63,175 bases of DNA, filler included, from Basidiobolus ranarum (GCA_040143965.1; 16 parts of 16 records of this genome joined end to end with filler, not necessarily neighbours in it); one strand, 5' to 3'. Shown: positions 1 to 63,175, numbered from the whole stretch's first letter. Translations and numbers: made by a program. The notes: generated by a model from the letters alone, not told the origin.

Positions 1-790
1 ACTAAAGGAGTAAATAATTGAGAAGCATCTGGAAATATTCCTATTGAATATCTTAAAAATCCATAACCTGCTAATTTTAGTAATATTCCTGCTAATATTA
101 CTGAACCTGATACATTTGCTTCAGCATGAGCTTCAGGACATGATGGCAGTTTAATTACCAAAGTAGTATAAGTTATTTGATTGACAAGTGTTTTTCACTT
201 GTTCCTGGTCTGGGGCTAGGAACAACTGCCAAAAAACTGTGGTAAAAATGTAATAAAACCAATAAACACCTGGTTGCTAAGATTGGATTGAACTCTCCAC
301 TTCTCCACAAGCAAACTGCCTCCTTTACTATAGTGCTGTGAGAGGAATAATACTTGTCAATAGCAGAGAGTCAGTAACAAAACCATTGTCTTCTTCTTCA
401 ACTTGTGATATATAACCACTGGTATTGGAATAAGCAACATTAATTTGTAGCAGCATGACCTCAAAGTTGTCTGGACTAACTGGTTTGACCAAAGTTACAT
501 TTCTATCTACATCATTCTGGTCATATTATTGTAGTAGCTCCATGGTACCTGGACTTTTGGCAGTGTTACTGAGACTTTGAGGCAAAGGACAGCCAGTGGA
601 CTCAGTGGGCAAAGCCAAAGTCAAATTAGTGAACTTATTACTGTTGCTATACACCTGCTTTGTGCAGCTGGTGGCTTTGTATAAAGACTGTGCTGGCAAC
701 TACTTTCTAGGAAGCCTCAGGCCTTCATAGCACAAGAATTTTTTACAATAATAGCAGGGCTTTGTTAAATTTTTATGTTGCAGCAGGAGA
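1..790 (-). mobile_element. Internal fragment of the CACTA-like DNA transposon family
   Basis: About 180-700 aligns by eye with 42697-43230, which is contiguous with Tnp2-like transposase remnants; CpG-poor. Confidence 0.6.
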
Positions 791-929
791 AGGATACTTT
801 TGAAAACAAATCATCTCTTATGTAAGGCTGGTAACTAAGGTATTGCCCATCAATATCCGCAGCTGAAGTTTAGATGGTGTCACAGATGAGTCATCAGGGG
901 ATTTACAAGATCTTTCCGGTAATAGATGG

Positions 930-1343
930 CCTATATTCCAAATATAAATATCTCTATATCCATATAACAAATGTTTTATTATCTCACTTATTTATTTTAT
1001 TGTATTACACTATCATCTTAAGCAATTGAGTTACTTTTCTACCATAAAAGTCTCTTTACACTCTGAAGATTAAAGTGGCTAAAACCTAAGTTGCTTCTAA
1101 TATACAAAGTCTATCCCCATTATGTCAAGAGCCTCTAACATGGCAGCAGTGAATAAATTAGTGTCTTCTTTCAAAAAAGTGATTACTAATATTGAAACAT
1201 TTAATGAGCCAGATTTCCTTGAATGGAAACTAAACATACAACTTGTGCTTGAAGGCAAACATATCTGGGAGGTGGTTAAACCAGACAAAGTAGATGAAAC
1301 TTCTGAAGAAGAAATGGATTTCAAAGAAAAAGGAAGTATATAG
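930..1343 (+). mobile_element. Ty1/copia 5' remnant with gag N-terminus
   Basis: ORF 1122-1343 has NIETFNEPDFLEWKLNIQLVLEGKHIWEVV, a copia gag N-terminal pattern; 930-990 matches the reverse complement of 31714-31776. Confidence 0.6.
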
Positions 1344-1349
1344 CAGTTA

Positions 1350-3725
1350 AATTATTTGGGAGCTATTTGCAAGTGATTTGAAGAATTAGAGAAATTGGTG
1401 ATTTTCACTTGTTAAGTTATTAGGTAGAAAGCTGACATTTATAGTTTAATCAAGATGTAGACAAGCTAACAAGTAGAATGTGCTAAGGAAGGTCCTATGA
1501 GCATGTGTGCAAAGTTTGAGGCTTCTAGCACAAGTTTGAAAAACCTATTTTTCTTACAACATCTAAGTTGGTAAATATAGTCCAAGTAAGTTATGATTGA
1601 GAATAATGGATAATATCTTGGTGACTTAATACAAAACTAAGAACTATGCTCTATATTACTATATTGGTGCTCAGGCAATGCAAATTTCAACACTCTCCTT
1701 CAACTACATAGTCAAATAAACCAATCCTGATGAAGGTCTAAATTTCTGAAATTTCTGTGTAGCTAATGGTTTGGTTAATATATCAGCAAATATGTCTTCT
1801 GTAGAACAATAAGTTAAGTCAATAAACTTACTTTGTATAGTCTCTCTAAAGAAGGGATATCTGATATCTACATGTTTGCTTCTATTATGAAACATAGGTT
1901 TCTTAACCAATTTGATACAATTTTGATTATCTTGAAATAATGTAATTAGCAAATTTTGCTAATATCCTACATCTGATGAGAGTTTTCTTAACTATGTTTC
2001 TTCTTTTGTTACATTGCAGGTAGCCATGTGTTCTGTTTCTGTTGCGGAGAGTACTATGGCAGGTTGTTTCTTTGAATTCCAACAAATAGCTCCATTACAG
2101 CAAAGAAATAGGTGTCCTGTTATAGGTCTCCTAGCTTCAATATCTCTTCCACAATTTGCATCTGAATAGCCCATCAAATCAAAGCTTGATCCAGAATGAG
2201 TGTATATTAAGCACAGAGTCACAGTACCTTTCAAATATCTCAAAATCCACCTAACTGCTCTGATCCATTCAGATGCACATTTTTGAAGACATAGGCATAT
2301 AACTCCCACAGAAAATGCAATTTCTGGCTGCATTCAAACCATGAAATATATCAAATAACCAACCAGAGATTGATAAGGAAATATCTGGCTTTCATTTAAA
2401 TCCAAAAATGTTTGATTTGGTTGTTTTGTGGTCAAGTTCAGATTTGCCTCCATTGGAGCAGATACTGGATTACACTCTTCAATTCAAACTTCTTTAGCAT
2501 ACCCAGGTAATACTTTGGCTGGTTTAAAATCAATATTTTGATACCTGGTCTATCTTAATTGGGATTCTAAGCTTTGGTTGTCCCCAAAGTCATCAAGCCA
2601 TGGGAGGCTATAGTAAGTTCATCTACATATAAGGCTGATAAAAATGGGTTTACCTCATCTGGCCTGAAGTAGGTACTTTAGTTAGTATTACTCTTTTGGA
2701 ATTTGAGTGTGTCAAAAAAGTATTTATCTTGCTATTCCAAGCTGTTGGAGATTGTTTTACGCCATAGAGTGTTTTCTGGAGTCTCCAAGCTTTTTTAGGG
2801 TTTTATGGGTCCACAAATCCATCTGGCTAGTCAATATAGATCTCCTCAGCAAGCCTACCATTCAAAGAAGCACTTTTAACATCCATTGGATATATAGTAA
2901 ACTGATATTTGGCTGAAACTGCTAAAATCAATCCTATTTAATTAAACCTTGATACAGGAGCAAAAATTTGTATATAGTCTATTCCTGATGTTTGAGATTA
3001 GCCTTTGGCTACTAGTCTAGCCTTATACCTTTCTATACTTCCATCAGAATTGTATCTAACATTACAACCCAATGGCAGCCAATTAATTATCTATAATTAG
3101 CATAATTAAGACTTCAGATTTTGGTTAAAGAATATATACTTAGGTATGTCTTGTTTTGTCATTAATAGAGGTCATAAAGTACCTTTTGCCATCTATGGAG
3201 TAGTTTTTCATGTATCTGACTAGGTCAGAATGAAGACAGTTAAATTATGAGTGGACAAGATCTTTCTCAAGCTTGAAACTAGCAGACTGCAATGTTTTCT
3301 GTACTTCACCGTCACATAGACTTAATTTGGCAATATTACAAATATTGAGCATGAAATAAGGTGATATTTAAGCATTTAGAATAGTCTTTTCTTTTTTATG
3401 CCACAGTTGACAGATTATTTCACAGGTCTTGGCCAACTATGCATGTCCAAATGTAAATTTTTGATTTCTAGCTTATATAAGTTTTCAGTTTTGATTCAAG
3501 TAGTTTGTTTGGTATTATTCTGCTTTGTAATAGTGCATCCAGCTTGGCTGAGCACAAAACTTAGTTGTTGGGATGTTACTTAGCTTACTGGGAGTAGTTT
3601 CACAGCTATGTTTAGGTACCCACTGTACAACATCCAATTTGCAGATGGTATAGCTAATTTTTGGCTTAAATTGAGCACAACTGTGACCTTACCAACTGCA
3701 CTTAGTATGTAGTCATCTCCCAGTA
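1350..3725 (-). mobile_element. Degenerate Ty1/copia element: integrase, RT and RNase H remnants, PPT and 3' LTR (family A, from 1692 leftwards)
   Basis: Motifs KARLVAKG, GYSDAN, WNSKKQ, RSKHVDIRY, ADILTKPL; PPT AGTTGAAGGAGAG followed by TGTTGAAAT; LTR homologous to 10566-10913 and 32303-32650. Confidence 0.9.
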
Positions 3726-3871
3726 CCCTAACAAAAATAAAATCAATTTGCTCTGGATTGGATCGACCCTCCAAAATAGCAAAACCATCTGCGAACCATC
3801 ACAATATTGTTGGCTTGCATTCTGCCAGGGATTTTGATGGTGTGATGGTGGTTTCTTGACTGTATCTTAAC
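3726..3871. mobile_element. CCCTAACAAAA terminus of the CACTA-like transposon
   Basis: The same terminal sequence recurs at 11619, 25438 (rc), 26017 (rc), 41256 and 49447, each time starting abruptly at CCC. Confidence 0.8.
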
Positions 3872-7941: not shown

Positions 7942-8052
7942 AGTAACATTGACAACGGTCTTAGCGGCTTTACGGGAGGAGCCAGAGATAGCAACAGACT
8001 GCTTCTTGGTGCTGAGGATAACACCCTTGCCAGAGGGGTTGGCAGAAATACC
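7942..8052 (-). pseudogene. RPL28: Fragment or exon of 60S ribosomal protein eL28
   Basis: Translates as GISANPSGKGVILSTKKQSVAISGSSRKAAKTVVNVT with highly expressed-type codons; preceded by TATAG (possible acceptor) directly after copia RNase H sequence. Confidence 0.6.
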
Positions 8053-10210
8053 CTATATAAATCAACTTGTGCTTTAGCTGCAGGTTTAGTTGAGATGGCA
8101 GGAATTATTACTTCTTAGGGCAATAGACAAGTTCAAATATATATTTTCTATTACTTCTCTAACAAAATGATGCTTAATATCTATATGTTTGTTCTAGCAT
8201 GAAATGTTGGGTTTTCAGCTAATAAAATACAACTTGCATTATCCTCAAATACAGTAATAGCACTTTCTTGCATGTATTCTAAGTCTGTAAAGAACTTTCT
8301 TAACCACATAGCTTTGTGTGTAGTAGCAGAGGCAGCTATTTACTCAGCTTCTGTGATGGAAAGTGCTATGGATGGTTACTTCTTACTTTTCCAAGTTTTG
8401 GCTCCATTACTGTAGGGAAAGATGTACCCAGTTGTTGTTCTTCTATTGGCTTGGTTTCTTTCCCAGTATGCATTGCTGTAGCCTTCAAAATTTGTCAGTA
8501 AGTGGAGTGAACGGGCAGCTTCCGCTGCCCGGGACATATCTGAAGAGAGAATGCTGACATGAGTAACTTGAAAGCAGTTAAAAAACTGCTCGCCGAAAAT
8601 TCAAGGGCTGGGTAGCAACGTTAAACGGCTACCTTGTAAGTAACGGCCTCTCAGTCAAGAATGCATCAGCAACACATACTAAGAACAATGTCTGGACATG
8701 TTCAAACCATTGGATATCTTAGACTACCCACCATAGATTGATAAGGGCCCTCCTGGCTCTGATTTTAGTCATTTTGAGCTAAATCAGATGAAATTTTGAT
8801 TAATTTCAATATTGTGATCCATTAGTGTTGATACCAGCTTGCTATTCTCCATGTTGAAGCATTTTAGGATATTTGGGATGTATCCAGACTGATTCAGCTT
8901 GATTTTCTGATTGGTTTTATCTCTCTTGATATGGATTCCAAGAAACTAACTTAGTTCACCCATATCAGTGATCTGTTCTTGGTTTGCTAAGCTGCTTTTT
9001 GTCTGATTAAGTGCTTCTGTAATCTGCTGTGCATTTTTAGAACTTTAGGGAGTCCCAATATGTATCTATCTTGTTGTACCATGTCCTGGGTGCTTGCTTG
9101 AGTCCATATAGCAATTTTTGCAGTTTACAGATCATATCCAGGTGTTTTTGGTCTACCAATGCATCTGGTTGCTTTATATAGATCTCTTGCTCTAGATTTC
9201 CATTCAGACAGACTGCTTCTACATCAATTTGATGTAAATCAAGGTTATGGATGGCTGAGAGTGCAAGGATTGATTTAATGGAGCTAAACTTGGCTACTGG
9301 AACAATAGTTTCATCAAAATCAACTTCTGGTGTCTGGGATTGACCTTTTGCACCTAATCTTGCTCTGTATCTTTCTATAGCTCCATCAGCTTGTATCTGA
9401 CTTTATAAACCTATTTGCCACTTATTAGTTGTCTTCCAGATGGTAGAGGACTTAAAACCATTATTTTATTGTACTGAAGTGAAGAAAACTCATCAGACTT
9501 TGCTTTTTCCCATAATTTTAATTCTGGGCTTTCCAGAGCTTGACCTAGAATCTGTGGCTTGTCACAGAATGCTGCCTAAGCATAGACATTGTCACTGGAA
9601 GCATTGCACTAGTTTCCTGGCTTATTTCTCTATCTCTGCTGTAATTGGGACTGGAATTATAGTTGAATAGGGCTCAGATACAGCTGGAATTTTGTCAGAT
9701 ACTTCCTGAAGAGTGCTGATTGTGTTTTCCGGATCAAGAACCATGGTTTGAGGTGCAAATTTGCTTTTTCATCAAAAATCACTTCTCTGCACTTAATTAA
9801 CTTCTAATTTTTGGTATTAAAAGTCAGTTGGACTTAGAGCAATCACAGTGACCAAGATATATGCATTTTCTGCATTTGGGTTCCGTTTTAGATGATTTTA
9901 GAGCTGGAATTAGGCAAGATGCTATGCATCCAAAGATCCTGAGATGATCCACACTTGGTTTTGATATATATAGGGCCTGAAATGGGGTAGAATTTTGTAG
10001 CATTATTGCTTGGCATCTGCTTTTAATGTAGACTGCAGTGGAGACAGATCTAGCCAAATATTGGTAATCTAACTGTTGATTATGTAACATTGATATTGCC
10101 ATCTCCCCTACGGTTCTGTTAGCATGTTCTGCAACTCCATTTTGCTGTGGAGTATATGAGTCAGGGCAAAATTCTGAGTGGATTGGATCTCTCCTGATCT
10201 TGAAAATCAC
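8053..10210 (-). mobile_element. Degenerate Ty1/copia pol (integrase, RT, RNase H)
   Basis: YTPQQNGVAE, HLRIFGC, RARLGAKG, YQSMVGSL, KHIDIKHHFVRE motifs; many stops and frameshifts. Confidence 0.9.
8495..8655 (+). rRNA. rnl: Non-functional fragment of mitochondrial/bacterial-type LSU rRNA (probable NUMT)
   Basis: GAAGAGAGAATGCTGACATGAGTAAC..CTCGCCGAAAATTCAAGGG..CAACGTTAA resembles 23S rRNA around E. coli positions ~1200-1350; perfect 8-bp stem CGGGCAGC-TTCC-GCTGCCCG at 8512-8531. Confidence 0.75.
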
Positions 10211-10565
10211 TATCTGTGAAGTTGTCCATACATGTTACCTTCATGTCGAAAGATGAATAATTCTAGCAGTTGGCCTTGGTTGCTGTGGTTGATAGTACAA
10301 ATTATACTGGTATGTGTGTCTAGTAGGACACTACTAGGGTTAACTCTTCCACATATGTAAAAAACTCACTGGTTGGTTTGGTTAAATCAGGTAAATTGCA
10401 TGCAATGATGAATGAAAATGTGGGCTGTTCTCTTTGCAGTTGTACATAAAAAATGGAAGAAACAATAAGAACTCTGCCAAGCTAGTGTTGCTATTGATAT
10501 GTACCTGGCAGCCTTCCATAAAAGGTCATGGTGGAAACACACTATTTGTGGGATGCTATGATGGG

Positions 10566-11335
10566 TGTTGAAATTAGCATTGCCTCAACACCAATATGGT
10601 CATATATAGCTTAGTACTTAGTTATCTTATAAGTCACTTGGTTATTATACATTATTCTCAATTGGAATTTACTTGGAGTATTTTTACCAACTTAGAAGCT
10701 TTTAGATATTTAGAATTTTGAAACTTGTGCTTGAAGCCCCAAACTTTGCACCCATGTTCCTGGGACCTTCCTTGACACATTCTGCATGTTAGTTTGTTTA
10801 CATCTTGACAAAACTATAAATGTCAACTTTCTACTCAATAAAGCAATAAGTGAAAGCCACCAAGTTCTCTTATTGTCCAAACCACTTCCAACAGGATCAC
10901 ATATACTTTAACAGGTTATGAGCCCCAAGCTTGCACTCTCTGTAATGTCTACTTCTCAAATTTATAGAACTTTTCCCTCTTCTGAACAATTGGATGGAAC
11001 CAATTATCAAGTTTGAAAAATGAAAATCAAACTGCTGCTGCAAGAAAAAGGGCTTTGGGACACTGTTGTAGGTGAAGAAAACAATGAAAAACTCTCTGAA
11101 ACAAAGTTTTACTCCAGGTTAAAATAGAACAAAGTGCCTTTATCACAATTTGCTTCAATGTTAAGGATAAATTGCTAATTCAATGCTCAAGAGCTAAAGC
11201 TGCCAAGAAGGTATGGAAAGCCTTAGAAGACATCTACCAAACATGTTCTGCTGCCAACTAGATGTTTCTAAGCAGACAATTCTTTAACTTAAAGATGAAG
11301 CTAGGAGAAGACTTTAAATCACTTATTAATAGCTC
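10566..11335 (+). mobile_element. Ty1/copia 5' LTR (10566-10913), PBS (10914-10925) and gag remnant
   Basis: TG...CA LTR of family A; PBS GGTTATGAGCCC; gag from 10945 reads LDGTNYQV*KMKIKLLLQEKGLWD. Confidence 0.85.
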
Positions 11336-11339
11336 AAGC

Positions 11340-11618
11340 ACATTCCATGAAGACATCTGTAAACTTCAATCTGAAGACCCATTGGTAATATTAATCAAGA
11401 AAGCCCAGGATACACCCAAAGGCCTCTTGAGCTTGAACATGTACTGCCATTTCTCTGTCATCAAAGATCTCTTGTTTTATAAGAAGCCCCTTTATATTCC
11501 AGATCACACTTCCAGACTCAAAATTGTGCAGGAAAGACATGACACACCACTTCCAGGACACTTTGGTATTGCCAAATAATATATGTTGGCATCCAGGGAT
11601 TATTGATGGCCCAAAATA
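11340..11618 (+). mobile_element. Ty3/gypsy integrase zinc-binding (H2C2) remnant
   Basis: LLFYKKPLYIP..RLKIVQERHDTPLPGHFGIAK. Confidence 0.75.
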
Positions 11619-11810
11619 CCCTAACAAAAATAAATTGATTTGATCCGGATTGGATCCACCCTCCAAAATAGCAAAACCGTCAGAGAACCGTCACAATATT
11701 GCTGGCTTGCATTCTGCCAGGGATTTTAATGGTGTGACAACAGTTTCTTGATGGTATCTTAACGGTATTCATACATGTGAAAATATTGATCCTCAAATTT
11801 GGCAGGCGTT
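11619..11810. mobile_element. CCCTAACAAAA terminus of the CACTA-like transposon
   Basis: Homologous to 3726-3871 and 49447-49635; interrupts the gypsy integrase remnant. Confidence 0.8.
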
Positions 11811-11910: not shown

Positions 11911-12021
11911 GGTGCGCCAGTTGTCAACGCTGAATTTCTTGAATAGAGTATTGAAAAATTTCAGGAAATCAGGATTGTCAACAATGACGTCACCATCTCC
12001 GAAGCAATGTCCCTTGCGCCA
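11911..12021. repeat. 111-bp exact terminal direct repeat of contig 4 (second copy 15667-15777)
   Basis: GGTGCGCCAGTTG...CCTTGCGCCA is identical at both contig ends. Confidence 0.95.
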
Positions 12022-12798
12022 TCCTAAGGATTGGCAATAGTTCAACCAAGGGAATGATGGAGTGATGTCCTTGAGTTGTTTGAAGGTGAGTTTGTTGTAA
12101 GTGCGATAGACATCACGCTGCTCAACTGAGGACAAAGAATTCTTGGCAAGGGCTGTTTCAAAGTCCAACACTACCTTGGCCTTAGCCTTGGCGTTTTTGA
12201 CTTTGGCGAGGTTGAGGATCTTCTCAATATGTGCAAGGTACTTCTGACGGACCTCAGCTTGGCCCTCTTCAGTGTAGTACTCCTTGCTTGGGAGAGAAAG
12301 GCCGTTCTGTCCAATGTATGACAATGTCCAAGTGGAGTTCTTACTATCGGGCTGGGATGCAATGGCGAAAAGAGGACTTCCGCCATGGACCGAGACCGAG
12401 AGACTGTGGAGGGTACCAAGTGTCTTGGCAACATCACTAGGATTGCGAATACTGCCTACTTGCTTCAACAACTTCTTGATTGGGCTTAATCCCGACTTCT
12501 TGATGAGAGCCAAGTCCAATCCTGACGCATAGTAGTCCCCTAGCAATGAATGCTTAGTGGAGTTTCCTGCTTTCTCCAGAGTGGCCAAGAGATAGTCAGA
12601 ATTTCTTTGGTCTAGGACGGAGAAGGTGTTCCAGATGGAACGATCGCCTGGGAGTGTGGTGTTCTTGATCCAGTCGTAGTTGGCATGGAAGTAGAAGTTC
12701 TCGGTAGCTGCGGGAACTTGGGGTGGTAGGTCTTGAGCATACACTGAACTGCCAGTGACGGCCAAGGATAATAGAAGCAGTTTAGCAGTAGTGCGCAT
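11911..12798 (-). CDS. M13 family (neprilysin/ECE/PepO-like) zinc metallopeptidase, N-terminal 296 aa
   Basis: Signal peptide; NFYFHANYDW and QNGLSLPSKEYY motifs; runs off the contig edge into the 111-bp terminal repeat. Confidence 0.92.
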
Positions 12799-16674: not shown

Positions 16675-16679
16675 CTTTC

Positions 16680-38496: not shown

Positions 38497-38515
38497 TATA
38501 TATATATATATATAT
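38497..38515. repeat. (TA)9 microsatellite upstream of GFA1
   Basis: Directly visible TA run. Confidence 0.9.
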
Positions 38516-48652: not shown

Positions 48653-49446
48653 ACACTTGTTCCATCATATTGAGCCAGATTAGGCTAGCTACAAAGTGCG
48701 CCAGCACAAATTGGCTCAATTAGGCACTATCCGGCAAAATGTTATGTACTATTTCAGAAACAGTAGTTTTAAATATGTGATATATTTAGGAAAAGTGCTT
48801 TTAGATATCATTGCACATTCAAAAGATGATGAAAGCTTTATTTATATTGTCTTAAGTCTAGAGCTCTTTATGGATACCTTTGAGTTTATGTGTATTGCAA
48901 CATAATCAAGATTTTGACCACTTTGCCTAACTTTGCTTGAAGCCCACAAAATGATTTTCCTCCATACTTTCCTGCTACAACACTATATCTCTTTAGGCAA
49001 CCAAAGCTATGTTCTACTCCAGCTCCAAATGGGAAAACACTTCAGTAGAAAGCTTTTGCCTTGCTGTGAGTATCCCTCTTCTGGGCCTAGTGTTAGCTAA
49101 GAAACATCCTAGCCTTCTGCATTCTTCACCAACACATGCCAAATCAGCCATAGTCTTCTCATATCTTTCAAATGATGCATGCCTCTCAAGCTAAAGCCTT
49201 TTGTCATGGTGTCACCCTAGATGTGGCCCACCAAAACAGATGATGTTTCCTTCCAAATTCATCAAATCCTGGAACTTTAAACAATGAGCTTTGTACTTGA
49301 CAGAATAGATTGACTTTTGGTTGCTTTTGGGCCAGTTAATTCTCACAGGAAATGTGTCAAGAATATTTCTGATGTGAACTCTATTAAGATATACTGCCAG
49401 AAATGAAAGGAAATTAGAGTCTCTGAATCTTTTGTCCCAGGGACAT
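48653..49446 (-). mobile_element. ISL2/PIF-Harbinger-like (DDE_Tnp_4) transposase pseudogene with right TIR
   Basis: ILDTFPVRINWP..QKSIYSVKYKAHCLKFQ..GPHLG*HHD..MADLACVG..VEHSFGCLKRY gives all three D/D/E positions; terminus ACACTTGTTCCA at 48653. Confidence 0.8.
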
Positions 49447-51357
49447 CCCTAACAAAAATAAACCCAATTTGAACCAGATTGAATTCATCCTCCAAAACAG
49501 CAAAACCATCTGAGAACCATCCAGTGTTGGTGGCTTGCATTTGGCCAGGGATTTTGATGGTGTGATGGTGGTTTCTTGACAGTACTTTGATGGTATTCAT
49601 ACATGTTAAAATATTGATCCTCAAATTTGGCATGCATTATTCAATATCTAGCAATTTTTGTCAATATCTAATTTTGGAATGGCAAATTACTGGGTTTACT
49701 GCTTTAGTAATTTGAATCAATATGCATGCCTTTAGTTAGATCATTTAGACTTTGCATTCCAGCCAAAATGAGAATCAAAATATACTAGAATCTCATTGTG
49801 TTTAGTCACTACATATGCACATACTTTACTAATTAGACCTAACTCAACAGCATCAATATGCTCTACTAGCATACTAATGGTGGAGAAATATCTAAACATC
49901 TAAAATTTTGAATAGCACTGGCACGCGGTAAATAGCTGACTCTTGTTACTCTTTACAATCAGAATAGGCTCTTAGATTTTAGCAAATTTCTGTAAAGAAT
50001 TCAGCCAATATATCCTCAACTTGCAGTCAGCAAATGTCCTGTCACAAGTAGATGTATCATTGGTTGTATATTACCCCATGGCTGAAACAATAATATAGCA
50101 TATCTTGATCTATCTCACCAAGAAGTATATCTTGCAGCTTTCCTGAAAATGCCATTGGATTATCACACAAACAAACTAGTTGGAATTTTAGATGTACTTA
50201 CTCTGTGGCCATGGATTGGGCCTTGGTGCTGCTATTATGCTCAAACAATGCAAAAACCCATGAATACATTGAAAAGAGCCTTTGTTGGAAGGTTAATATA
50301 CTCTGGAGTCTCCTTAACCCATTGCATTAAATCCATCACTGATTTTGCTGATATATTGTTGAACAGATCAGCATACAATAATACTGATGATATCACATAG
50401 AGCAACATTTCACTGCAGGTACCCTCCATTGGGAACTCCCAGAATATACAGCAAGGGCCAATAATCTCTAAGCATTGTGAAAGATGCAAGGGCCTATAAT
50501 CTCAAAGCATTGTAAAAGATGCAGCAGTGAATGTGTTGAATATTGCATAGATTCAGTCTATCTTCTTTAAACTTGAAATAAAGTTTTTCACATCCAATTA
50601 TAAAATCATTACACAGTTGCTGGATCTGCCTGAGATCTGCAACTGTGAGTTGATGCTGTAAGAATATATTTATAATATCCTCAAACAACTCCCAATGTTG
50701 CCAATACTAATCAGGCAGAAATCTTTTCAAAATTCCACTTGAATATATACAAATCCAATACTTCCAGTCTTTGCATTTGAATAAACACCTAGATGAGTGG
50801 ATATTGATGGGAGTCCTGGTAAAATATGATGGTATCTTGATGTTTTCAAGCATTTTCCCAATTGATTCAAACTTTGATCCTATCTTGAATGGCTCATTCA
50901 TATTGAATTTTTCACTATATAGCTGAGTAAGTAGTATTGGAATGTTGTTGAATAGTAAGTGCATGGTGCCTAATGGGAAGCTCTGGCTCCAGCTGATCCC
51001 CTTTAGCAATATAATCTTAGGCTTATGGCTAATACCAAGTTTGATGTTAGACTGACTATTTGGTGAATTGATATCAGTGATCATGTTGAAATCAGACCAG
51101 GCTCTTGACGGTAAAATCTTGAAGTTTAATGTTATATTTGGATAGTAGTATTACATATGCCTGTTAGAGTAAACTCCATTGATTTGACAAAATCTACAGC
51201 AATATAGTGCATTGTGCCCATGAAAACCTCCAGGTTTACTGATGGTAGGAGTGTCACCAATACATACAATGATATTAGCTTTAATAAAATATTCACCCAT
51301 CTGAACCCCATTAGATAACTGTTCAAATTCCGCAATCAAAGGCTCCAAGAAGCTATC
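49447..51357 (-). mobile_element. CACTA-like transposase pseudogene with CCC terminus at 49447
   Basis: GDTPTISKPGGFHGHNALYCCRFC, FPLGTMHLLFNNI, GPCCIFWEFPMEGTC; inserted into the Harbinger-like element. Confidence 0.85.
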
Positions 51358-51457: not shown

Positions 51458-52861
51458 TACAAGGAAAGTATACTTAGATGCTGACTTTGCACTAGATGCT
51501 GTTGGTAAGGGCACAGTTGTACTCAATTTAGACCAAAATTTAGCTACAACATTTGCAAAATTGGGTGATGTACTCTATGTAGCAAATAAAGCTAAGATTC
51601 TACTCTCAGTAAGCCAAACAACAACTAAAGGACTAAATTTTGCATTTGGTAATGCTGGATGCACTACCACAGAACAGAATAAGATCAAAGTAGCTATTGG
51701 GATCAAAACTTGAAACTTGCACAAATCATAAATCAGCTAATTGCATTCTGAGCATGCAATCTTGGCCAAAACTGGTGAATTATGCTGTCTAATATAGAAT
51801 AAAAAAGAAGGCCACATTGGGAAACACAAATTAACCCAAATGATCCAATATCAGCTTGTTCCAGGCTTAGAAATTGAAAATAGCAACAAATTGAATCTTT
51901 GTCAAGGCTGCATGTATGGAAAATGTTGAGGATAGCAAGCCTGCATTTACACCAATGGATCTCAAGGTGAAACATGCAGGTATTTGAAAGGTATTGTAGA
52001 ACTACTTCTGGAATACCCTGGCTCTCCTGATGCATATTTTTTTGAAGCAGACAGCAATGCTAACTGGGGAAGAAATGGTGAGAAAGAGGATCAATAACTG
52101 TGTACACTTTTCTCAATGTGAATGAAGCCATAATTTGGAACAGCAAGAAGCAACCAACTGTACCACTTTCCACTACAAAAGCAGAGTATATGGCAGGCTT
52201 TACATTACACAAGAAGCTCTGTGGTCAAGGAACTTACATATCTAGAATACTTGCAAAGACATGCTATTACTGTATATCAACATCATCAATGTTTGATATT
52301 GATATCTATACACTCAACAATTGATGCAGGACAAAGCATAGAAATATTTAGCATCATTTTAATAGAGAAGCAGTAGAGAATTATATGATTGTACTTGTCT
52401 ATTGCGATGCCAGAGAGGTAATGCTAATATCTTGACCAAATCTTTAGCTTAAGCACAATTGGAATTATTAAAATATAAGTATGGGTTAAGAGAAATACAA
52501 AATAATTAGTTGAATAGGAACATTGAAATTGGATAAGTAGCAACACATTATTTGGTAGGTGGTTAATTTGTGTTTGGATTACTTAGCACTCATTTCTGTC
52601 ATTCAAAAGTATGTGTTTATTGCTTGCATTGATAGCAATATGATATAGATCACTTTTCACAATTTTCACAAAACTTCTGAAAATCATCTGAAACTTTCAC
52701 ACATGCTTAGCTGGGATGTTTACTATGATCCAAGTACATCCAATGGTTGTATCTCATTGTAAACTGTAAGTAGAATATATTCAATTAAGTAGAATATAAG
52801 TGTCTAATTTGCAAATCCAAACATGTCACAAACACTCCCCAATACCAAAACATTTTTATTA
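51458..52861 (+). mobile_element. Ty1/copia remnant with 3' LTR family B (52521-52861)
   Basis: WNSKKQPTVPLSTTKAEY; LTR homologous to 16323-16674. Confidence 0.8.
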
Positions 52862-52899
52862 GATTTACCTAATATTGGTAATCTAGCATTTGATCATGT

Positions 52900-55060
52900 T
52901 ACATTGATTTTGCCATCTCTACTATGGACCTATGAGCATGTTCTACAACTCCATTTTGCTATGTAGTATAAGCTCCAGTAGTTTGTTGCTTGATTCCATG
53001 TTTAGAACAAATACTAGCAAAGTATTTAGAGCAGTATTTTCCACCATGATCACTCCTAAGTACCCTAATTTTTTCTGCTGGTTCATTATTTACTTTTGCT
53101 TTATGGTGCTGAAATAGAGTCAAGGCTTCAGGTCATGATTTGAGAAAGAATACCAAAGTACATCTTGTATAGTCAACATTGTAGCTCATATAGTACCTTT
53201 TGCCACATAGTGAGACATTTTTGATGGGCCACACAGGTCAGAAAGCAACAAGTCAGAATTTGGAGTGAATCTGATCTTGCCAGAGCTTGAGAACAGATAT
53301 CTGAAATATTTTCCATATATGCAAGCTTCTCACAGATCTACTTTGCTTTTATTCAATTTTTCTCAGCCTTAAACAACTTGATTTTGGAGCATTTTCAATA
53401 GGTTTTGTTACTCAATGTGGCCTCATCTTCAATGCCATGTTTGACAGCATATGTTGCCAGTTTCTGCCTAGTTTGCTTTATCATAATGCTATTTCCAGAT
53501 TTTGTGCTTGTGTAAGTTTGGGTTCTAATCCCAGTAAGTAATTTGTTGTAATTTGGATTGGTGATAGTATATCCAACCTTGCTGAACATACACACTAGTC
53601 CTTGAGCTGATGTATGATTTACTGAGATTAGATACTAGGCTAGATTTGATCCATAGAGTACATCATTCAATTTTCCAGATGTTGTAGCTAAACTCAGGTT
53701 GGAATTGAGCACAACTGTGCCCTGACCAACTGCAGCTAGTGAATAGTCATTTCATAAGTAGACTTTCTTTGTTTAGAGAGTTTTAAACTGGGAAACCAAT
53801 CTTTCTTATTTGACATATGCTGGGAAGCTCCTGAATCAATATACCACATTTCTGAGTCTTTCCTAGTGTTTACTAATAGCGCAGACACAGATAGATGATC
53901 CCTGATCATGCTTACTTGACTTGCTTGTTCCAATTATGTCTTTTTGGCAAAAATCCATTTTCTGCAAACTGTGATTCAATGGCTTGGCTTCTGGCAATAC
54001 TTGCAGATGATTGATTTTTTTTTAGAAGCACCATTATTGAAGCCAGTTGGACAGTTTACAGCTCCCAAAATGCCTGATTTGCATTACAATGCTGACAATT
54101 TGCTCACATTGATTCATCATTCAAAAGCCAGTGCCCTCTTTTTACATTGTTTATGACTCCAATCTTGTTTCTAGAGCAATTATAAAGTTCCCAAACTAGT
54201 CCTGCAGGCTCCCCAGTAGTGTCATAATAATGTTATCTTGATTTAGAGGTGCTTCAACATATGAGAACTGATCTGCCATTTTTGTTCCAGTTTATTTGAT
54301 TAGCCATGAAATTGCCAGAATTCTTCTGAATTGTGAGCAATTCTTGTCTAAGCCATAGCCTATTAGCCAGACTTTTAGCTTCATATAGTTCCTGAAGTGT
54401 ATCCCAATCAATTTACATGTTTTAGGCTGGGTGTATGTGCCTCAATTGAGAGTCTCTGAGATGCAGACAAGGTGAGTAGAACAGTTTCTTTTGCTTCTTT
54501 GAAAGGTAAGGATAGCTTCTGGTGGTCCCTTTGGCTCAATCTCAACTTCTGTAACAAATCCTCAATGGTCCTTGTCATCTAGCACCATCTGCATCTTGAA
54601 CTGCAAAGTTGAAAGTCTTCACCATCAAGCCTCTCTGTGGATTCAAAAACAATAGTGTAGTTACTGATACACATTGCTCTAGCAGCTGGCTTTTAGATGA
54701 TAACCTGATAAATTATTTTGGGGGATTTCAAATTGTTTTGAGAAGAATTGAATTTGTAAATCAGATGCTGAAATGCTGTTGTATCATATAAATCCTGTTT
54801 ATATTTTACTACAAAATAGAACTAATGGACATACTTAGATCATGTCAGACAGGCCTGTAATGAGTGGGTGAAAGTTTCAGGTGATTTGGAGAAGTTTTGA
54901 GAAAATAATGAAGGTTGGTATAAGTGATCTAATTATTATTTCTCTCAATCAGGGCAATAATCACACATTTGTGAATGGCAGAACCGAGTGCTATATAATT
55001 GCAATACAAATAAACCAATCATTAAACAATGACTTGCTATTTACCTAATTTAAACAATAT
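52900..55060 (-). mobile_element. Ty1/copia gag-protease-integrase remnant and partial LTR family B
   Basis: WYIDSGASQHM (protease), gag zinc-knuckle remnants, SDLCGP (integrase); 54835-55058 is the rc of LTR B. Confidence 0.8.
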
Positions 55061-55165
55061 GTATCCTTCCAAGATGACAACTTGTGATGCTTGCTAAATA
55101 GAATTCTAAGATAGCTTGTACCTTTCAGATCACATATAATATTTACAGCTATTTAATGATATATT

Positions 55166-55299
55166 AGACTTGCTCCATTGGACCAGGTCAAGTTATGCTT
55201 CTCAATCCAGCCTGCTAGTGCACTATCTGGTGCAATATGTCACCTACCATCACTAGGTCCTATAACACTTGATTAGACACTATAAGGAACAATATGCAC
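55166..55299 (+). mobile_element. Left end of the ISL2/Harbinger-like transposon
   Basis: Starts AGACTTGCTCCATTGG; homologous to 18241-18375. Confidence 0.7.
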
Positions 55300-55399: not shown

Positions 55400-55934
55400 G
55401 TTGAGAGGCATGCACCATTTGTAAGATATGAGAAGACTTTGGCTGATTTGGCATATGTTGGGCAAGAATGCAGAAGGCTAGGATGTGTCATAGCTAACAA
55501 GAGGCCCAGAGGAGGGATACTCACAGAGATGCAAACTTTATAATGATATTTTTTCCCATTTTAGAGTAAGAGTAGAACAGAGCTTTGGTTTCCTAAAGAG
55601 ATATAGCATTGTAGCCAAAAGTATAGAGGAAGAGCATTTTCTGGGTCTCAATCAAAGTTAGGCAAAGTAGTCAAAATCATGATTAATTCTCAATACATTC
55701 ATTCTCAAATATATCCATTGAGAGTTCCTGACTAAATACAGTATGAAAAAAGCTTTCATCAACATTTCAATGTGCAATCATGTCTAAAAGCACTTTTCCT
55801 AACTATGCCTTATAAGTAAAACTACTGTTTCCAAATGGTAAATAACATTGTGCTGGATAGTGCCCAATCATGCTAATTTGTACTGGCATACTTTTTAGCT
55901 GGCCTGATCTGGCTCAATAACATGGAACAAGTCT
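55400..55934 (+). mobile_element. ISL2/Harbinger-like transposase 3' part and right TIR
   Basis: TLADLAYVG..KRPRGGILT..YNDIFSHFRVRVEQSFGFLKRY; ends TGGAACAAGTCT. Confidence 0.8.
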
Positions 55935-58900
55935 ACTATATACATACACTATTTCCAATAAAGTTTCTCATTTTGCTGCAAAAATTATAACACAAACATT
56001 ACACTAGTTATTCATTAGCATCATATTTATATAGTACATCAACTCAAAGCTCTATTGACAACATCCCTAACTGAATTTGATATTAAGTACTTATAGCACA
56101 TAAGCTGTTCAGGTGGAGTTATTAACTTCCATATAGCTAATTTTGGCACTAACTTTGAGAAATGGCAATGGCATTTGCAAGATGCCTGAAGGCCAACTGT
56201 CCTTAAACACACACTATGTAATAAATTTGCTGTAATATTATCAGTTTTCTGGTGTGAGTGTAGACTTGGGTCAACCACTACTGAAAGCATGCTTTCTTGT
56301 ACCTTTGCAATAGCAAATAGATCATTTTTGGAAGGGTGACCTTGCCAATAGAGTTCATGTAGTTTTATAGTATTTTTGTTAACCCAAAGGTTAAATCTGT
56401 CAAGCTTTATATATACTATGACAACAGATGAAATTGAAGCCAACCTGTCAGGTCTATTTTTGGCCCACTCTTTAAGTTGCCTAAAGAGAGGTTGCACGTC
56501 TCTATAGGGTAGGATATTAGGTTCTTAGTAAAGATTATTATTTAACATGCAAACTAGCATATAGAATGGTGTAAGTGCATGGGAGATATGATTGTGTGAT
56601 GCTCCTGAGTCTACCAAAGCTGTAAAACATGTGTCTTGAATGGGGATGGGTAGTTGCATGATTGGTCAACTACTCTTTGTATCTTTTGTAGGCTAATAAC
56701 CATCATGGTTGTTTGTTCTTGGTAATACCATCTGTTGTCCTGACATGTATTTGAACTGGTAAATCTTGGTTCCCTTTCATTTCTGATTACAGTCACTTGC
56801 CTTAACTCAATAGGAGCTGGTTGGTTATTTCTAGCAGGAGGCTGTAAGTATCTTGTTGAGTGGAATTGTTGGTTTTGATAGTCTGAGTGACTGCTAAACC
56901 AGACCAAATTTTGTATTGTAGCATATTGAATTGCTTCATCCAGATAGCTTTGAAATTAACACATGATGTAAATCCAAGCTCCTCACTTGAGTCATTTGAT
57001 GAACTGGTGTATCTTACTTCCATCATTTATGGTAAATATTTGTCCTTCTATGTCTACAAACTCAAATACACAGGGTAGCACAGTTCCCTTCTGTCTGATG
57101 TTTGCAAGCTAACCATATATAAGTAAAGACAGCAATCTGTTCAATAAATGCAAAACTTTGCATTCAAGTTTTAGATATTAGGTGTCATTCATAAAATATT
57201 TTTGATATTGGAGTGTTATCAAGGTTTTGCTTCAATTAAAATGTTGATTGAAAAGTTGATAGTCATATTGCATTGTCTGTGAAGGATTAGTTTCAAGTTT
57301 TCAAACTCAATACATACTTAATTATATCTATTTTTTGAATATTAGAGACAAGCCAAGATCACATGGATATTCATTGGCTACATGTTTTTGAAGCCTAGTT
57401 TTAGCTTCTTTGATGTTGGTTATTTGTGTTTTCTTGCTATTTGTTTCTGTATTGAATACTAATCCATTACAATCTTTCAAATGATTTTAAATATGCAAAT
57501 GATCAGAAAATTAGTTAAAGATATCAAAGTCAGTAAGTACAGGAAACAATATTGCAAATAATCTTTTATCCTTACTTGAATCAGAGATCATAGGCCTCAC
57601 CTTGGGCATATTTGGCCAAGCATAACTTCCTGTGCATTAGAAGTGTTATATACCATACAAGAAGAGTGTGTATGGGGGTTACATCCCCAAAACTCCCCAC
57701 TTTTTTTTTAGGACTGTATTCCCCATGCACACTGCTTTCTGTTTATATCAAGAGGACTACATCACCCAGACCCCCTCTTTAAATCCTTACCATTTCTATC
57801 CCTTACCAAAATATATATATCATAACCCTAAATTCAATTGCTAAGAGCTTGCACTTTTATAAAGATAACAGCAGAGCATGTGTAGAAGCCTGCCATGTAG
57901 GAATGCATATCTACATGTAGGTTTTCACATAGACAATGTGATTGTGAAGTTAGTTTGAATCATTAGATCTCTAGTGGCAAGTGTGTTGAGTTTTTATTGT
58001 AGTAGCAGCTATTGCTTATTATAGTTATCAAACATTCCTCATGTCAGGTTTCCATACTATGGTAGTTTAAATAGAGTTCAATCTGGGGCCAGGAAGCACA
58101 TAGTGCTTTTGCTTGCTTATCTCCTTGTATTATCAGATACTGTCTTTGTCTTTTCCAACATATTCATATATTCAACAACTTATCTATATTCAATACTTCA
58201 TAGGTGCTGATTGTCTTTAGTATTTTCATTGCTGCCAATTTCCATAGTTGGAAATATTTAAATAACATAGCTTCATCCCCATAAATTTCTTCTTTACTTT
58301 ACTATTTTGCAAAATCCAGACTTCAATGCTGAGTTTCTTCAATATATTGAAATTCCAGACATAGGTAATATATTGCTAGCTTATATTGATCATCATGTAA
58401 GATGCATAGATGTTGCCTATAATGGCTTAGCATCAATCTGTATTATAGTCCAATTAAAAGCTGCATAGTGCTGAGCATCATGTAAGCTCTCTACTACCTC
58501 AAAACTCATGTTTGACATCTGGTTGCTATTGCTCTTGTTGGTTGAATAGGTTGAACATATAATCCATAACAAAAATTTAAAGATTGTTATTGTAGCAAAA
58601 CTATCACAATTTTAATCCATTTGGGATTGACCATTTACTTACCATCATAAAGTCATCAAGTTAGATATGATTTTAATCAATTCTTTCAGTTTCAGGGGTG
58701 AAATTTCAAGATTTTGCAAAATGGTTGCACATGATGGGCTACAATCTCAAAGAACTATGGATCAACACATGTGCAAAAAATGTAACTCAAATTTTACAAA
58801 ATTACCACTTGAATGCTAATTTGTCACCTTCACAATTCCTAGTCTCTTTGATATAATCTCCTGAATATTTTTATAGAGTTCTTCATACCCAAGGTTTAGC

Positions 58901-59338
58901 TCATACCCAACACAAGTTTGTGTCAATATCTTTATCAAAGCCCACCATTGTGTTAATGTTGCTGAATCAACATTCTTCCAGCTATCTGGTGGATACCCTG
59001 GAATAATGGGCCACTCTGTATTAAGTTCTTCCCAGCTATCTGCATGGTCCCAGAGTGAATGTCAAGTTGAATGTTCTTCTTCTGAAGCCACTTTCTGCAT
59101 ACTTGCACTGCATTTTTCCCTTCATACTTTTCACAATACTCCTCAAGCACTTTGACTATTTTTGTATGTCCTTGTAATGTGACACTACTGAGGGTGCTTT
59201 GTGGTGTTTGTGAGGCTTTTGGCTGACCTTTTAATTTGNNNNNNNNNNNNNNNNNNNNNNNNNNNNNNNNNNNNNNNNNNNNTTAATTAATTAANNNNNN
59301 NNNNNNNNNNNNNNNNNNNNNNNNNNNNNNNNNNNNNN

Positions 59339-62151: not shown

Positions 62152-62599
62152 AATATTCATACCTAATACCATACCCAATGCTAATACCCAAGGCAAATAC
62201 CTAACAAACTAGACTAATAAATGCACACCATTATTCAGATCCGAAATTGATTTAAGTTCTACTATAACAATATATTTACTCACTAGAAGTGAGAGATATG
62301 AGCAATGTATCTGCCCACTAATGGAAAGAGATGAAATAACCTATCGTTTTACCATTGTCCCTTCCTTGTCTGCTTTAATCAATGCTATAACTCTAATCAA
62401 TGCTATAAATCAGATAGATAGGGGAAATCAATAAAGGTAGGAACATACATTAATCCAATACCATCATAACCATCTATGTTAAATGTACCTAACAATTTGT
62501 GGATCTGCTTTAGGCAGGATGTACATACGCATCTTGGTGTCCAGTATAAATAGTCAGGAAAATAGCTTTCAGCAATATCAAGTCTTCTATTTATTAAGC

Positions 62600-62923
62600 A
62601 TGCGTTTCATTCTGCCTTTATCTATCCTCTTTTGCTCCATCTTCTCCGCTTTGGCTGCACCCTTACCACTGGATGCTGTAGTAAAAGTTGATACTGAATC
62701 TACTGGGAGATGTAACGATGTGAACGCAAAGATCAATGTGCTAAATTTAAATGTCACCGCGATCGTTTGCCTTGAGAAAAACCAAGTACTACCTATTGGC
62801 GTGGTGCCGAACTCAAGAACAGAATGCCCTGATATTGATGCAGAAATCAAAGCTTTAGGTTTGGATATTCAGGCCATCATTTGCCTCAAAGATGGTATCA
62901 AAGTATTTGTTGGTATCCGATAG
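62600..62923 (+). CDS. Small secreted protein with two Cys-bounded hydrophobic repeats (107 aa)
   Basis: Signal peptide ending LAAP; CNDVNAKINVLNLNVTAIVCL and CPDIDAEIKALGLDIQAIICL; TATAAA ~55 bp upstream. Confidence 0.8.
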   Translation: MRFILPLSILFCSIFSALAAPLPLDAVVKVDTESTGRCNDVNAKINVLNLNVTAIVCLEKNQVLPIGVVPNSRTECPDIDAEIKALGLDIQAIICLKDGIKVFVGIR

Positions 62924-63092
62924 TTAGTTATTACTTAAATCGTACTCATTATATTAATATGAAGCTTAATAAATTAATATTAATAATTCAACGTATATTC
63001 CTTCTTGAGAGTTGATCAATCGCATATTTTCTTTTTTTTCAGAGTTTTCAAATATGAAAGTGTTCTTAGAGCAATTTCCGTTACATCGCGAT

Positions 63093-63174
63093 GGTGAGAT
63101 GGCCGAGTGGTCTAAGGCGCTGCGTTCAGGTCGCAGTCTCTTCGGAGGCGTGGGTTCGAACCCCCCTCAAATCA
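63093..63174 (+). tRNA. tRNA-Leu(CAG), possibly degenerate in the acceptor stem
   Basis: Identical to 31533-31613 except the 3' acceptor strand (TCAAATC versus TCGCATC). Confidence 0.8.
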
Positions 63175-63175
63175 C

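Follow-up and report, generated by a model that had tools for sequence, protein, structure and literature searches.

Near-complete CpG loss from transposon DNA in the early-diverging fungus Basidiobolus ranarum

Loss of CpG dinucleotides from transposons is a known footprint of cytosine methylation that is targeted to transposable elements (TEs) and followed by deamination, and classical RIP, found in Neurospora and other Ascomycota, depends on RID and converts CpA to TpA. The work of Amselem et al. (2015; PMC4352252) on DNMT1/Masc2-type enzymes describes TEs with a CpG signature in Microbotryum, in rusts and in Tuber; as presented there, 10–40% of TE copies carry the signature, which is tied to a DNMT1-class enzyme and not to RID, and for which the authors invoke methylation and then deamination. 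The hypermutation described for Pucciniomycotina (Horns et al. 2012; PMC3318451) is a repeat-associated C>T change before G that requires a 5′ T. In vertebrates, germ-line methylation of TE CpGs and deamination give a strong CpG depletion (compare PMC12582260), which extends over most of the genome. For early-diverging fungi, 6mA is described as the dominant mark, with 5mC near-undetectable in these fungi and scarce in Zoopagomycota (PMC11258239, PMC13297926), and in the methylomes of Lax et al. (2024; PMC11258239) the 5mC of Phycomyces blakesleeanus and Linderina pennispora is restricted to repeats.

The window, the whole stretch of 63,175 nucleotides that was analysed, is a sample of 63 kb of small contigs from the Basidiobolus ranarum assembly: 16 contigs of 3,837–3,871 bp each (~3.85 kb), separated by the spacer N44-TTAATTAATTAA-N44. 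The gene contigs belong to B. ranarum, in agreement with an earlier sequence-only reading that had placed the organism among early-diverging fungi. With the expected number of CpGs computed for each contig from its C and G content, the observed/expected ratio (o/e) is bimodal, at 0.01–0.14 in contigs 1, 3, 5, 7, 11, 13, 14 and 15 and at 0.66–0.82 in the other eight. The very low CpG content that had been noticed by eye in the former set, with fewer than ten CpGs in contig 1 and few in contigs 14 and 15, is borne out by the counts (7, 3 and 1). The contents of the CpG-poor DNA are given below; P0121, an intact CACTA-type relative (Pfam Transposase_21), served as the tblastn reference for CACTA-like sequences.

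Contig 1, 1..3871: fragments of Copia type, with a CACTA-like fragment at 135–612 (−); domains RVT_2 at 2653–2802 (−) and DUF4219 at 1101–1340 (+); 7 CpGs observed, 117 expected, o/e 0.06.
Contig 3, 7942..11810: degenerate Copia element, minus strand; domains RVT_2 at 9040–9402 (−; E = 1.7e-31), SH3_retrovirus at 9827–10234 (−) and Retrotran_gag_2 at 11100–11258 (+); 20 observed, 140 expected, o/e 0.14.
Contig 5, 15878..19740: mosaic of repeats that also occur in contigs 3, 11, 13 and 14, with a CACTA-like fragment at 17764–18242 (+); 5 observed, 133 expected, o/e 0.04.
Contig 7, 23803..27658: CACTA-like transposase remnant at 23803–24728 (+) and Gypsy-type RT/RNase H remnant at 25996–26652 (−; RVT_1, RT_RNaseH_2, RT_RNaseH); 12 observed, 125 expected, o/e 0.10.
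Contig 9, left part, 31714..32918: Copia-family fragment adjoining CpG-rich gene DNA in the same contig.
Contig 11, 39615..43464: two CACTA-like remnants, at 39773–41260 (+) and 42102–43162 (−); 8 observed, 124 expected, o/e 0.06.
Contig 13, 47514..51357: CACTA-like transposase remnant at 50158–51357 (−); 9 observed, 131 expected, o/e 0.07.
Contig 14, 51458..55299: degenerate Copia element(s) with Pol_BBD, rve and Retrotran_gag_2; 3 observed, 121 expected, o/e 0.02.
Contig 15, 55400..59238: 753 bp common to other contigs, the remainder without an assigned class; 1 observed, 115 expected, o/e 0.01.
CpG-normal contigs, o/e: contig 2, 0.82; contig 4, 0.67; contig 6, 0.68; contig 8, 0.69; contig 9, 0.71; contig 10, 0.66; contig 12, 0.70; contig 16, 0.70.

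When the contigs are pooled into two compartments, with contig 9 divided at 32918, the CpG-poor DNA holds 67 CpGs in 32.0 kb (o/e 0.06) and the CpG-rich DNA 807 in 29.6 kb (o/e 0.72). Relative to its base composition, transposon DNA lacks about 94% of its expected CpG sites, whereas the genes next to it and the non-coding DNA that flanks them retain theirs. The two compartments separate in 500-bp windows (58 poor versus 54 rich; Mann–Whitney p = 4e-20), and the Poisson probability of each poor contig under the gene-compartment o/e of 0.72 lies between 1e-22 and 7e-35, with 2e-7 for the left part of contig 9. A reciprocal excess of TpG + CpA accompanies the loss (o/e 1.38, versus 1.13 in the gene compartment). 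GC content is alike in the poor and rich DNA (0.36 versus 0.39) and, since the o/e is already normalised for C and G content, the difference stands after GC correction, contrary to the outcome that the earlier reading had named as fatal to its proposal. The sharp switch that it had reported inside contig 9 near 32900 is located at ~32919, where a dense run of CpGs begins; only 2 CpGs fall in 31714–32918 (1,205 bp), versus 87 in the other 2,646 bp, and 31722–32699 matches contigs 1 and 3 at 79–85% identity.

Several classes of stop-broken transposons had been recognized in the CpG-poor DNA, and Copia, Gypsy-type and CACTA-like elements are found there; the label ‘Harbinger-like’ has no Pfam support. 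The read-through of contig 13 (50347–51357) matches the 698-residue P0121 at 86% identity and 80% of its length, and tblastn of P0121 against the remnant gives 65.5% over 412 aligned positions. Repeats common to the CpG-poor contigs are 72–87% identical, and all eight contigs are linked through shared repeat families. Repeat or TE evidence, from a search within the window, covers 21.1 of the 30.8 kb of the CpG-poor contigs, and for this portion the description of the loss as repeat-restricted is documented; the remaining 9.7 kb, largely in contig 15, are equally CpG-poor and show no repeat or TE evidence within the window. Contig 15 matches no Pfam family at E 0.001, its sole listed match being DUF5048 (E = 0.007; 16.9 bits, cutoff 32.3).

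The direction and timing of the loss are recorded in the differences between copies. In 46 BLAST alignments among CpG-poor sequences (17,519 aligned columns, from overlapping pairs that are not independent), CA-versus-TG double differences number 146, against a mean of ~22 for the six other double-transition classes and 6 CG-versus-TA differences (binomial p = 6e-36); CG is retained in both copies once and opposes TG or CA 56 times. A simple and crude decay model of these pairs gives ~307 ancestral CpGs, roughly o/e 0.5, with ~90% lost per lineage and a divergence of ~7% per lineage at other sites. The same polarity is seen in protein, where 44 of the 71 aligned Arg residues of P0121 are altered in the window copies, 29 of them to Gln, Cys, His, Trp or stop, the products of CGN>CAN or TGN, against 4 reverse changes (p = 1e-5). 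Six copies of a ~190-bp unit were aligned, and opposite the 5 CpGs that the contig 3 copy retains, nearly all other copies aligned there have CA or TG, the exceptions being GA at column 34 and CT at column 195. The CpG>TpG/CpA process that had been proposed to act on TE copies is thus visible in the alignments and in the Arg codons, and CpG loss took place after insertion, after the copies had separated, and independently in each copy.

Repeated DNA outside transposons, together with tRNA genes, provides a set of controls.

33103..33681: 93-bp tandem repeat, 6.2 copies within an ORF, units ~15% divergent; CpG o/e 1.43.
11911..15777, minus strand: contig 4 unit of 3,756 bp with identical 111-bp ends; CpG o/e 0.67.
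30436..30510, minus strand: tRNA-Arg(CCG), in a CpG-normal contig.
31532–31615, minus strand, and 63093–63175, plus strand: copies of tRNA-Leu(CAG).

Comparison of the units of the 93-bp array, which is short and under selection, gives 74 CG/CG, 38 CG-versus-TG/CA and 1 CA/TG. The contig 4 unit carries one M13 peptidase gene that stays in frame across the junction (self-closing). The coding array, short and selected as it is, the putatively multicopy M13 unit and the tRNAs all retain CpGs, as had been pointed out from the sequence, and CpG loss appears not to be due to repetition alone. In the gene contigs, DNA outside ORFs (of at least 60 aa) has a CpG o/e of 0.69 and DNA inside them 0.73, which argues that coding selection is not behind CpG retention.

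Compared with the known systems, the pattern resembles that of PMC4352252 in its CpG C>T bias in TE copies with genes spared, but here all contig-sized TE stretches are affected, at o/e 0.01–0.14, unlike the fraction of copies described there, and the lineage is Zoopagomycota, unlike the fungi in that account. With the Pucciniomycotina system it shares repeat-associated C>T change before G; unlike the 5′ T requirement set out in PMC3318451, ACG, CCG, GCG and TCG are all down 5- to 25-fold relative to genes (residual o/e TCG 0.03, ACG 0.05, GCG 0.07, CCG 0.14; genes 0.61–0.80), and TpCpG hypermutation of that type was rejected because the loss extends to all NCG and not only to those preceded by T. 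As in classical RIP, the C>T mutation is irreversible and kills transposon copies. Classical RIP was rejected on its CpA>TpA preference, of which no signal is seen: TpA/ApT is flat (0.79 in TEs versus 0.82 in gene DNA) and (CpA+TpG)/(ApC+GpT) is raised, not lowered (1.59 versus 1.27); non-TE repeats, such as the short, selected 93-bp array, appear to be spared. Strand runs were also not found among the TG and CA states along the copy alignments, which alternate (neighbours 60 same versus 46 different, p = 0.21), each contig holds TG and CA in nearly equal numbers, and both strands are hit equally. Of the CpG-directed methylation and hypermutation defence proposed earlier, the CpG>TpG/CpA loss stands, and the RIP-like half finds no specific support, with no CpA>TpA signal, no strand runs and no 5′-T specificity. 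As in vertebrates, CpG depletion is strong; in contrast to their depletion over most of the genome, in contig 9 it ends no more than a few hundred bases from the edge of the TE. The data of PMC11258239 are direct methylomes, whereas Basidiobolus is known here from its evolutionary footprint alone, and CpG erasure of such depth is not reported for Phycomyces blakesleeanus or Linderina pennispora in what that paper says of them.

The per-cytosine transition rate at CpG is ~33 times that of transitions in non-CpG contexts in the pair model, and ~38 times when estimated as (TG+CA)/(2 × CG), with equilibrium assumed. Outside CpG-derived contexts, transitions and transversions number 722 and 701, and C>T hypermutation of a general kind is therefore absent. 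The loss is CpG-specific and limited to the transposon compartment. The poor contigs retain 65 CpGs beside 4,952 TG+CA, and the elements are close to mutational equilibrium.

All eight poor contigs, together with the left 1.2 kb of contig 9, probably represent old, dead TE copies of B. ranarum whose CpGs were methylated and then lost through deamination of 5-methylcytosine. CpG cytosines in TEs would have been methylated in the nuclei that are transmitted, and deamination would convert CpG to TpG or, through the opposite strand, to CpA. The agent would be maintenance-type CpG methylation by a DNMT1 + UHRF1-like system, perhaps joined by Dim2-like enzymes; its target would be transposon chromatin and not repetition as such, and deamination would be spontaneous rather than enzyme-driven. 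Genes, non-coding flanks, tRNAs and coding repeats would keep their CpGs because they are unmethylated. For a congener, B. meristosporus, the entries in supplementary file 1 of PMC10538959 include a DNMT1, two Dim2-like proteins, UHRF1, HELLS and a CDCA7-like protein, with DNMT5 marked as not detected.

Heavy TE methylation is hard to square with the scarcity of 5mC described for Zoopagomycota and early-diverging fungi, unless such methylation is confined to repeats or lies in the past. The latter possibility, a fossil of TE CpG methylation by a system now weak or lost, with nothing acting on TEs today, agrees with the scarce 5mC described for Zoopagomycota and early-diverging fungi (PMC11258239, PMC13297926), and every copy here is old (72–87% identity), which makes the copies uninformative on present activity. 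It is nonetheless unlikely: CpGs would slowly recover once methylation was lost, the 65 residual CpGs against 4,952 TG+CA fit equilibrium under a sustained ~38-fold rate, and the congener keeps DNMT1, UHRF1 and HELLS according to PMC10538959.

A second, similarly doubtful reading is an unusually efficient CpG-erasing defence outside Dikarya, in which near-full methylation of TE CpGs in the transmitted nuclei would be joined by a 30–40-fold loss that is enzyme-assisted (DNMT1/Dim2-like) or owed to absent T:G repair. It leans on a rate above that of mammals, and on elements at mutational equilibrium. The mammalian CpG rate excess is roughly 10–15-fold, and because the 30–40-fold rate here exceeds it, an enzymatic contribution may exist. 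Such a system would be a functional analogue of RIP in CpG context, aimed at TE chromatin and not at duplication.

Still less is to be expected of an active RIP- or MIP-like enzyme that senses duplicated DNA and deaminates CpG cytosines in bursts, comparable to the Pucciniomycotina TpCpG hypermutation. The extreme erasure (o/e 0.01–0.14) and the ~30–40-fold rate excess would suit it, as would the two Dim2-like DNMT1-superfamily proteins listed for B. meristosporus (PMC10538959) and the possibility of RIP outside Dikarya, raised in PMC11105155 from composite RIP indices of entomophthoralean genomes. The alternation of TG and CA states (60 versus 46) and their balance in each contig, the depletion of all four NCG contexts and the apparent sparing of repeated non-TE DNA, such as the short, selected 93-bp array, argue against it; the ~7% per-lineage divergence elsewhere, with the estimated rate, would have left enough time for gradual decay.

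It is very improbable that the CpG-poor contigs are foreign to B. ranarum, having entered the assembly from, for instance, a host or contaminant whose genome is CpG-depleted, although no named Basidiobolus protein matches any of them, the CACTA-like query matched one unnamed ENA protein only, and the Copia RT query matched only Copia proteins, mostly from plants, at ≤57% identity (33–50% where the match covered two thirds or more of the query). This origin, which the sequence-only reading had listed as a refutation, is contradicted by the Copia fragment of the contig 1 and 3 family that shares contig 9 with CpG-rich gene DNA and by the repeat families that tie all eight poor contigs together; GC is similar (0.36 versus 0.39), and the o/e of 0.06 is far below that of vertebrate genomes. 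Genome-wide CpG hypermutability with genes kept by selection, to which the mild depletion of the gene contigs (o/e 0.66–0.82) might point, is just as remote given the o/e of 0.69 in their non-ORF DNA, and so are transposons that were CpG-poor on arrival, as the 146 CA-versus-TG differences against ~22 and the Arg polarity indicate copies once at ~o/e 0.5 that lost CpGs in place.

Methylation followed by deamination is a known kind of system; its footprint is here unusually complete, in a lineage for which no report was found in the literature; the mechanism is textbook, so the value of the case is taxonomic and quantitative, not conceptual. Near-complete, TE-limited CpG erasure would imply that the transposons of a zoopagomycete were heavily CpG-methylated over a long time. 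Since the signature here is CpG decay and not CpA>TpA, composite ‘RIP indices’ would be poor evidence of RIP in entomophthoralean genomes. CpG o/e could serve as a cheap, sequence-only marker that separates silenced repeats from gene space in such large, fragmented genomes. The gene contigs are themselves mildly CpG-depleted, at o/e 0.66–0.82. The CpGs that remain in contig 3 are grouped at 7956–7973, 8512–8644 and 11646–11807.

The window's 16 segments, each 3837–3871 bp long, arranged in descending length and separated by N44-TTAATTAATTAA-N44 spacers, show a sharply bimodal distribution of CpG observed/expected ratio (o/e, from C and G content). Eight contigs (1, 3, 5, 7, 11, 13, 14 and 15) have o/e values of 0.01–0.14, with 7, 20, 5, 12, 8, 9, 3 and 1 CpGs, respectively, against 115–140 expected in each, and every one of them departs from the gene-compartment level (Poisson P from 1e-22 to 7e-35); the other eight, the gene contigs, have o/e values of 0.66–0.82. 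The switch also occurs within contig 9, where positions 31714–32918 hold 2 CpGs and the remaining 2646 bp hold 87, the dense run starting with a CpG at 32919. Pooled, the CpG-poor DNA contains 67 CpGs in 32.0 kb (o/e 0.06) and the CpG-rich DNA 807 in 29.6 kb (o/e 0.72), with TpG and CpA o/e higher in the poor fraction (1.38 versus 1.13) and near-complete separation of the two in 500-bp windows (Mann–Whitney p = 4e-20). The evidence that the CpG loss is real, as the sequence-only reading had proposed for the transposon contigs and for a sharp transition inside contig 9, is very strong.

Two local departures were observed. In the otherwise CpG-rich part of contig 9, a 495-bp gap (34569–35061), where about 10 CpGs are expected, has none; it has no similarity to the transposon contigs of the window and may be an unrecognised transposable element (TE) relic. 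In the middle of CpG-erased contig 3, eight CpGs lie within 133 bp (8512–8644), a patch without match in tRNA, Rfam and Pfam searches.

Pfam and protein searches of the poor DNA recovered three element types: Copia, Gypsy-type and CACTA-like. TE domains were found in 4 of the 34 ORFs of at least 80 aa scanned against Pfam, with a chance-level match in 1 more, and a family was assigned to 9 of 146 stop-to-stop fragments of 50–80 aa. Contigs 1, 3 and 14 carry the Copia domains RVT_2, SH3_retrovirus, Retrotran_gag_2, Pol_BBD, rve and DUF4219, and contig 7 carries Gypsy-type RVT_1 with RT_RNaseH_2/RT_RNaseH. The family common to contigs 7, 11 and 13 gave no Pfam match from its own read-through sequence, which matches a single protein, P0121 (698 aa), at 86% identity (contig 13 remnant, 80% of the query aligned). 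The precomputed domains of P0121 are PF02992 (Transposase_21, CACTA/TNP2 type) and PF06869, and its remnants, interrupted by 27 stops, were located by tblastn in contigs 1, 5, 7, 11 and 13. The source of this apparently intact CACTA-type transposase is a 5233-bp ENA contig.

All-against-all BLAST revealed many repeats common to the poor contigs, at 72–87% identity, and placed the left, CpG-poor stretch of contig 9 in the same Copia family as contigs 1 and 3 (79–85%). Repeat or TE evidence covers 21.1 of the 30.8 kb of poor contigs, with an o/e of 0.063 there, and the remaining 9.7 kb is equally depleted (0.068). The label 'Harbinger-like' that had been applied to some copies was not confirmed: nine read-through frames over 55400–56001, 48500–49300 and 47600–48600 returned no Pfam family. 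A resemblance to the C-terminal motif of PIF/Harbinger transposases was noted. In 12 read-through frames of contig 15 no family reached E 0.001, the sole listed match being DUF5048 (E 0.007; 16.9 bits, cutoff 32.3), and most of this contig is unclassified by the Pfam read-through scans. A 64-aa fragment of contig 1 (3–194, minus strand), adjoining a CACTA-like remnant, matches Proton_antipo_M, a membrane subunit of NADH dehydrogenases/antiporters (E 1.7e-5; 24.7 bits, cutoff 21.5); either chance or an insertion of mitochondrial DNA could account for it.

The route of CpG loss was read from 46 pairwise alignments among poor sequences, with 1796 transitions and 1575 transversions in 17,519 aligned columns. 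These alignments overlap, so that their counts are not independent events. The CA-versus-TG combination is by far the most frequent double difference between copies (146), followed by a class with 30, the six other double-transition classes averaging 22; CG-versus-TA was seen 6 times (146 versus 6, p = 6e-36). A CA/TG pair corresponds to an ancestral CG that changed once in each copy, on opposite strands, indicating that CpGs were present when the copies separated and were lost independently. With CG/CG at 1 and CG-versus-TG/CA at 56, a simple model puts the ancestral CpGs at about 307 (roughly o/e 0.5), with approximately 90% of them decaying per lineage.

Direction was assessed against P0121, 71 arginines of which align to window copies. 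Gln, Cys, His, Trp and stop are the products of CGN>CAN/TGN changes, and they replace 29 of these arginines (11 Gln, 9 Cys, 5 His, 3 Trp and 1 stop), 27 being kept and 15 changed to something else; changes in the opposite direction total 4 (29 versus 4, p = 1e-5). Judged by this sequence comparison, the CG>TG/CA polarity is confirmed against an intact relative. In a six-copy alignment of a unit of about 190 bp, the five CpGs that the contig 3 copy has retained stand opposite CA or TG in nearly all other copies aligned at those sites, except for a GA (column 34) and a CT (column 195).

Outside CG, TG and CA contexts, 722 transitions and 701 transversions were counted in 10,356 columns, so a general C>T excess is absent and the process is CpG-specific. 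Depletion affects every one of the four 5′ contexts (TCG 0.03, ACG 0.05, GCG 0.07 and CCG 0.14, versus 0.61–0.80 in gene DNA), in contrast to the TpCpG-specific pattern described for Pucciniomycotina in PMC3318451. Per-contig TG and CA counts are approximately equal, making the loss strand-symmetric, and the two states alternate along the alignments (neighbours 60 same versus 46 different, p = 0.21). The per-cytosine CpG transition rate is roughly 33 times that of other transitions under a pair model, and roughly 38 times when taken from (TG+CA)/(2 × CG) with the elements assumed to be at equilibrium.

Selection on coding sequence fails to account for the difference between the two classes of DNA, because gene contigs keep CpGs outside ORFs of at least 60 aa (o/e 0.69) as well as inside them (0.73). 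Repeated sequences in CpG-rich DNA include the following array:

33103–33681, inside an ORF: 93-bp tandem repeat, 6.2 copies, units about 15% diverged

Despite that divergence, comparison of its units gives CG/CG 74, CG-versus-TG/CA 38 and CA/TG 1, with an o/e of 1.43. The sequence-only reading was right that this repeat, the M13 peptidase unit of contig 4 (o/e 0.67) and the tRNA genes, which sit in CpG-normal DNA, have escaped the loss. tRNA-Leu(CAG) genes lie at the ends of contigs 8 (31532–31615, minus strand) and 16 (63093–63175, plus strand), which have 81 bp in common there at 97.5% identity; multicopy tRNA genes are apparently points at which the assembly breaks.

The footprint is one of CpG-specific mutational decay of TE copies. 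Its most economical reading is a maintenance-type CpG methylation that would be aimed at transposon chromatin, with 5-methylcytosine (5mC) on transposon CpGs then deaminating spontaneously over a long time. The congener Basidiobolus meristosporus has, according to supplementary file 1 of PMC10538959, DNMT1 (ORX99839), two Dim2-like proteins, UHRF1, HELLS and a CDCA7-like protein; DNMT5 is marked there as not detected. A purely historical footprint is possible, and is a poorer fit with CpG levels that stand at the equilibrium of a sustained, approximately 38-fold rate. That the poor contigs are contamination is unlikely, since contig 9 physically links the TE family to CpG-rich DNA and shared repeats tie the poor contigs into a single network; none of them, however, has a named Basidiobolus protein match. 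The Copia reverse transcriptase ORF is uninformative here, either way, its 52 matches being Copia proteins only, mostly from plants, at up to 57% identity (33–50% for those spanning two thirds or more of the query). The high rate excess would suit an enzymatic process resembling RIP but acting in CpG context, which we nevertheless regard as unlikely, as none of its specific predictions was borne out. RIP indices showed no shift in the RIP direction between poor and gene DNA (TpA/ApT 0.79 versus 0.82), with the substrate index raised to 1.59. APOBEC-like editing of retroelements was rejected, the loss being limited to CpG, symmetric between strands and just as strong in DNA transposons.

This is a known kind of system, unusually complete, in a lineage for which no report was found. 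Full-text literature searches returned no account of TE-specific CpG erasure in Basidiobolus among the papers listed; relevant data could be in Bewick et al. 2019 and in Mondo et al. 2017, which may include DNMT content or 5mC for B. meristosporus. Passages of PMC4352252 tie fungal TE decay with CpG-biased C>T change to DNMT1/Masc2-type enzymes in Microbotryum, rusts and Tuber, and passages of PMC11258239 describe CG methylation confined to repeats in Phycomyces and the zoopagomycete Linderina. Near-undetectable 5mC in early-diverging fungi is stated in a 2026 review (PMC13297926), and an entomophthoralean genome paper sought RIP with composite indices and contains no CpG analysis, the term CpG having 0 occurrences in it (PMC11105155).

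The attribution of the DNA to an early-diverging fungus held up. The contig 4 M13 peptidase ORF is 100% identical to K7432_015735 of Basidiobolus ranarum, and the contig 8 aquaporin ORF shares a cluster (90% or more) with a protein of B. meristosporus; in an exact look-up of six ORFs, the aquaporin was the sole one recorded, the contig 9 ORFs having no record. Contig 4 (11911–15777) begins and ends with the same 111 bp, and two minus-strand M13 peptidase ORFs, open at the contig ends, share a frame across this overlap, making the contig one self-closing 3756-bp unit with a single gene of approximately 678 codons. It is either a tandem array that was collapsed or a circular path of the assembly. 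After the identical protein, the closest matches of the peptidase are paralogues in B. ranarum and B. meristosporus (72–84%), and the best non-Basidiobolus matches of the 14530–15777 ORF (minus strand) are bacterial or metagenomic, at about 46–49% identity, those named among the matches listed being Verrucomicrobia, including Chthoniobacterales. These similarities suggest that the expanded M13 peptidase family originated in bacteria.
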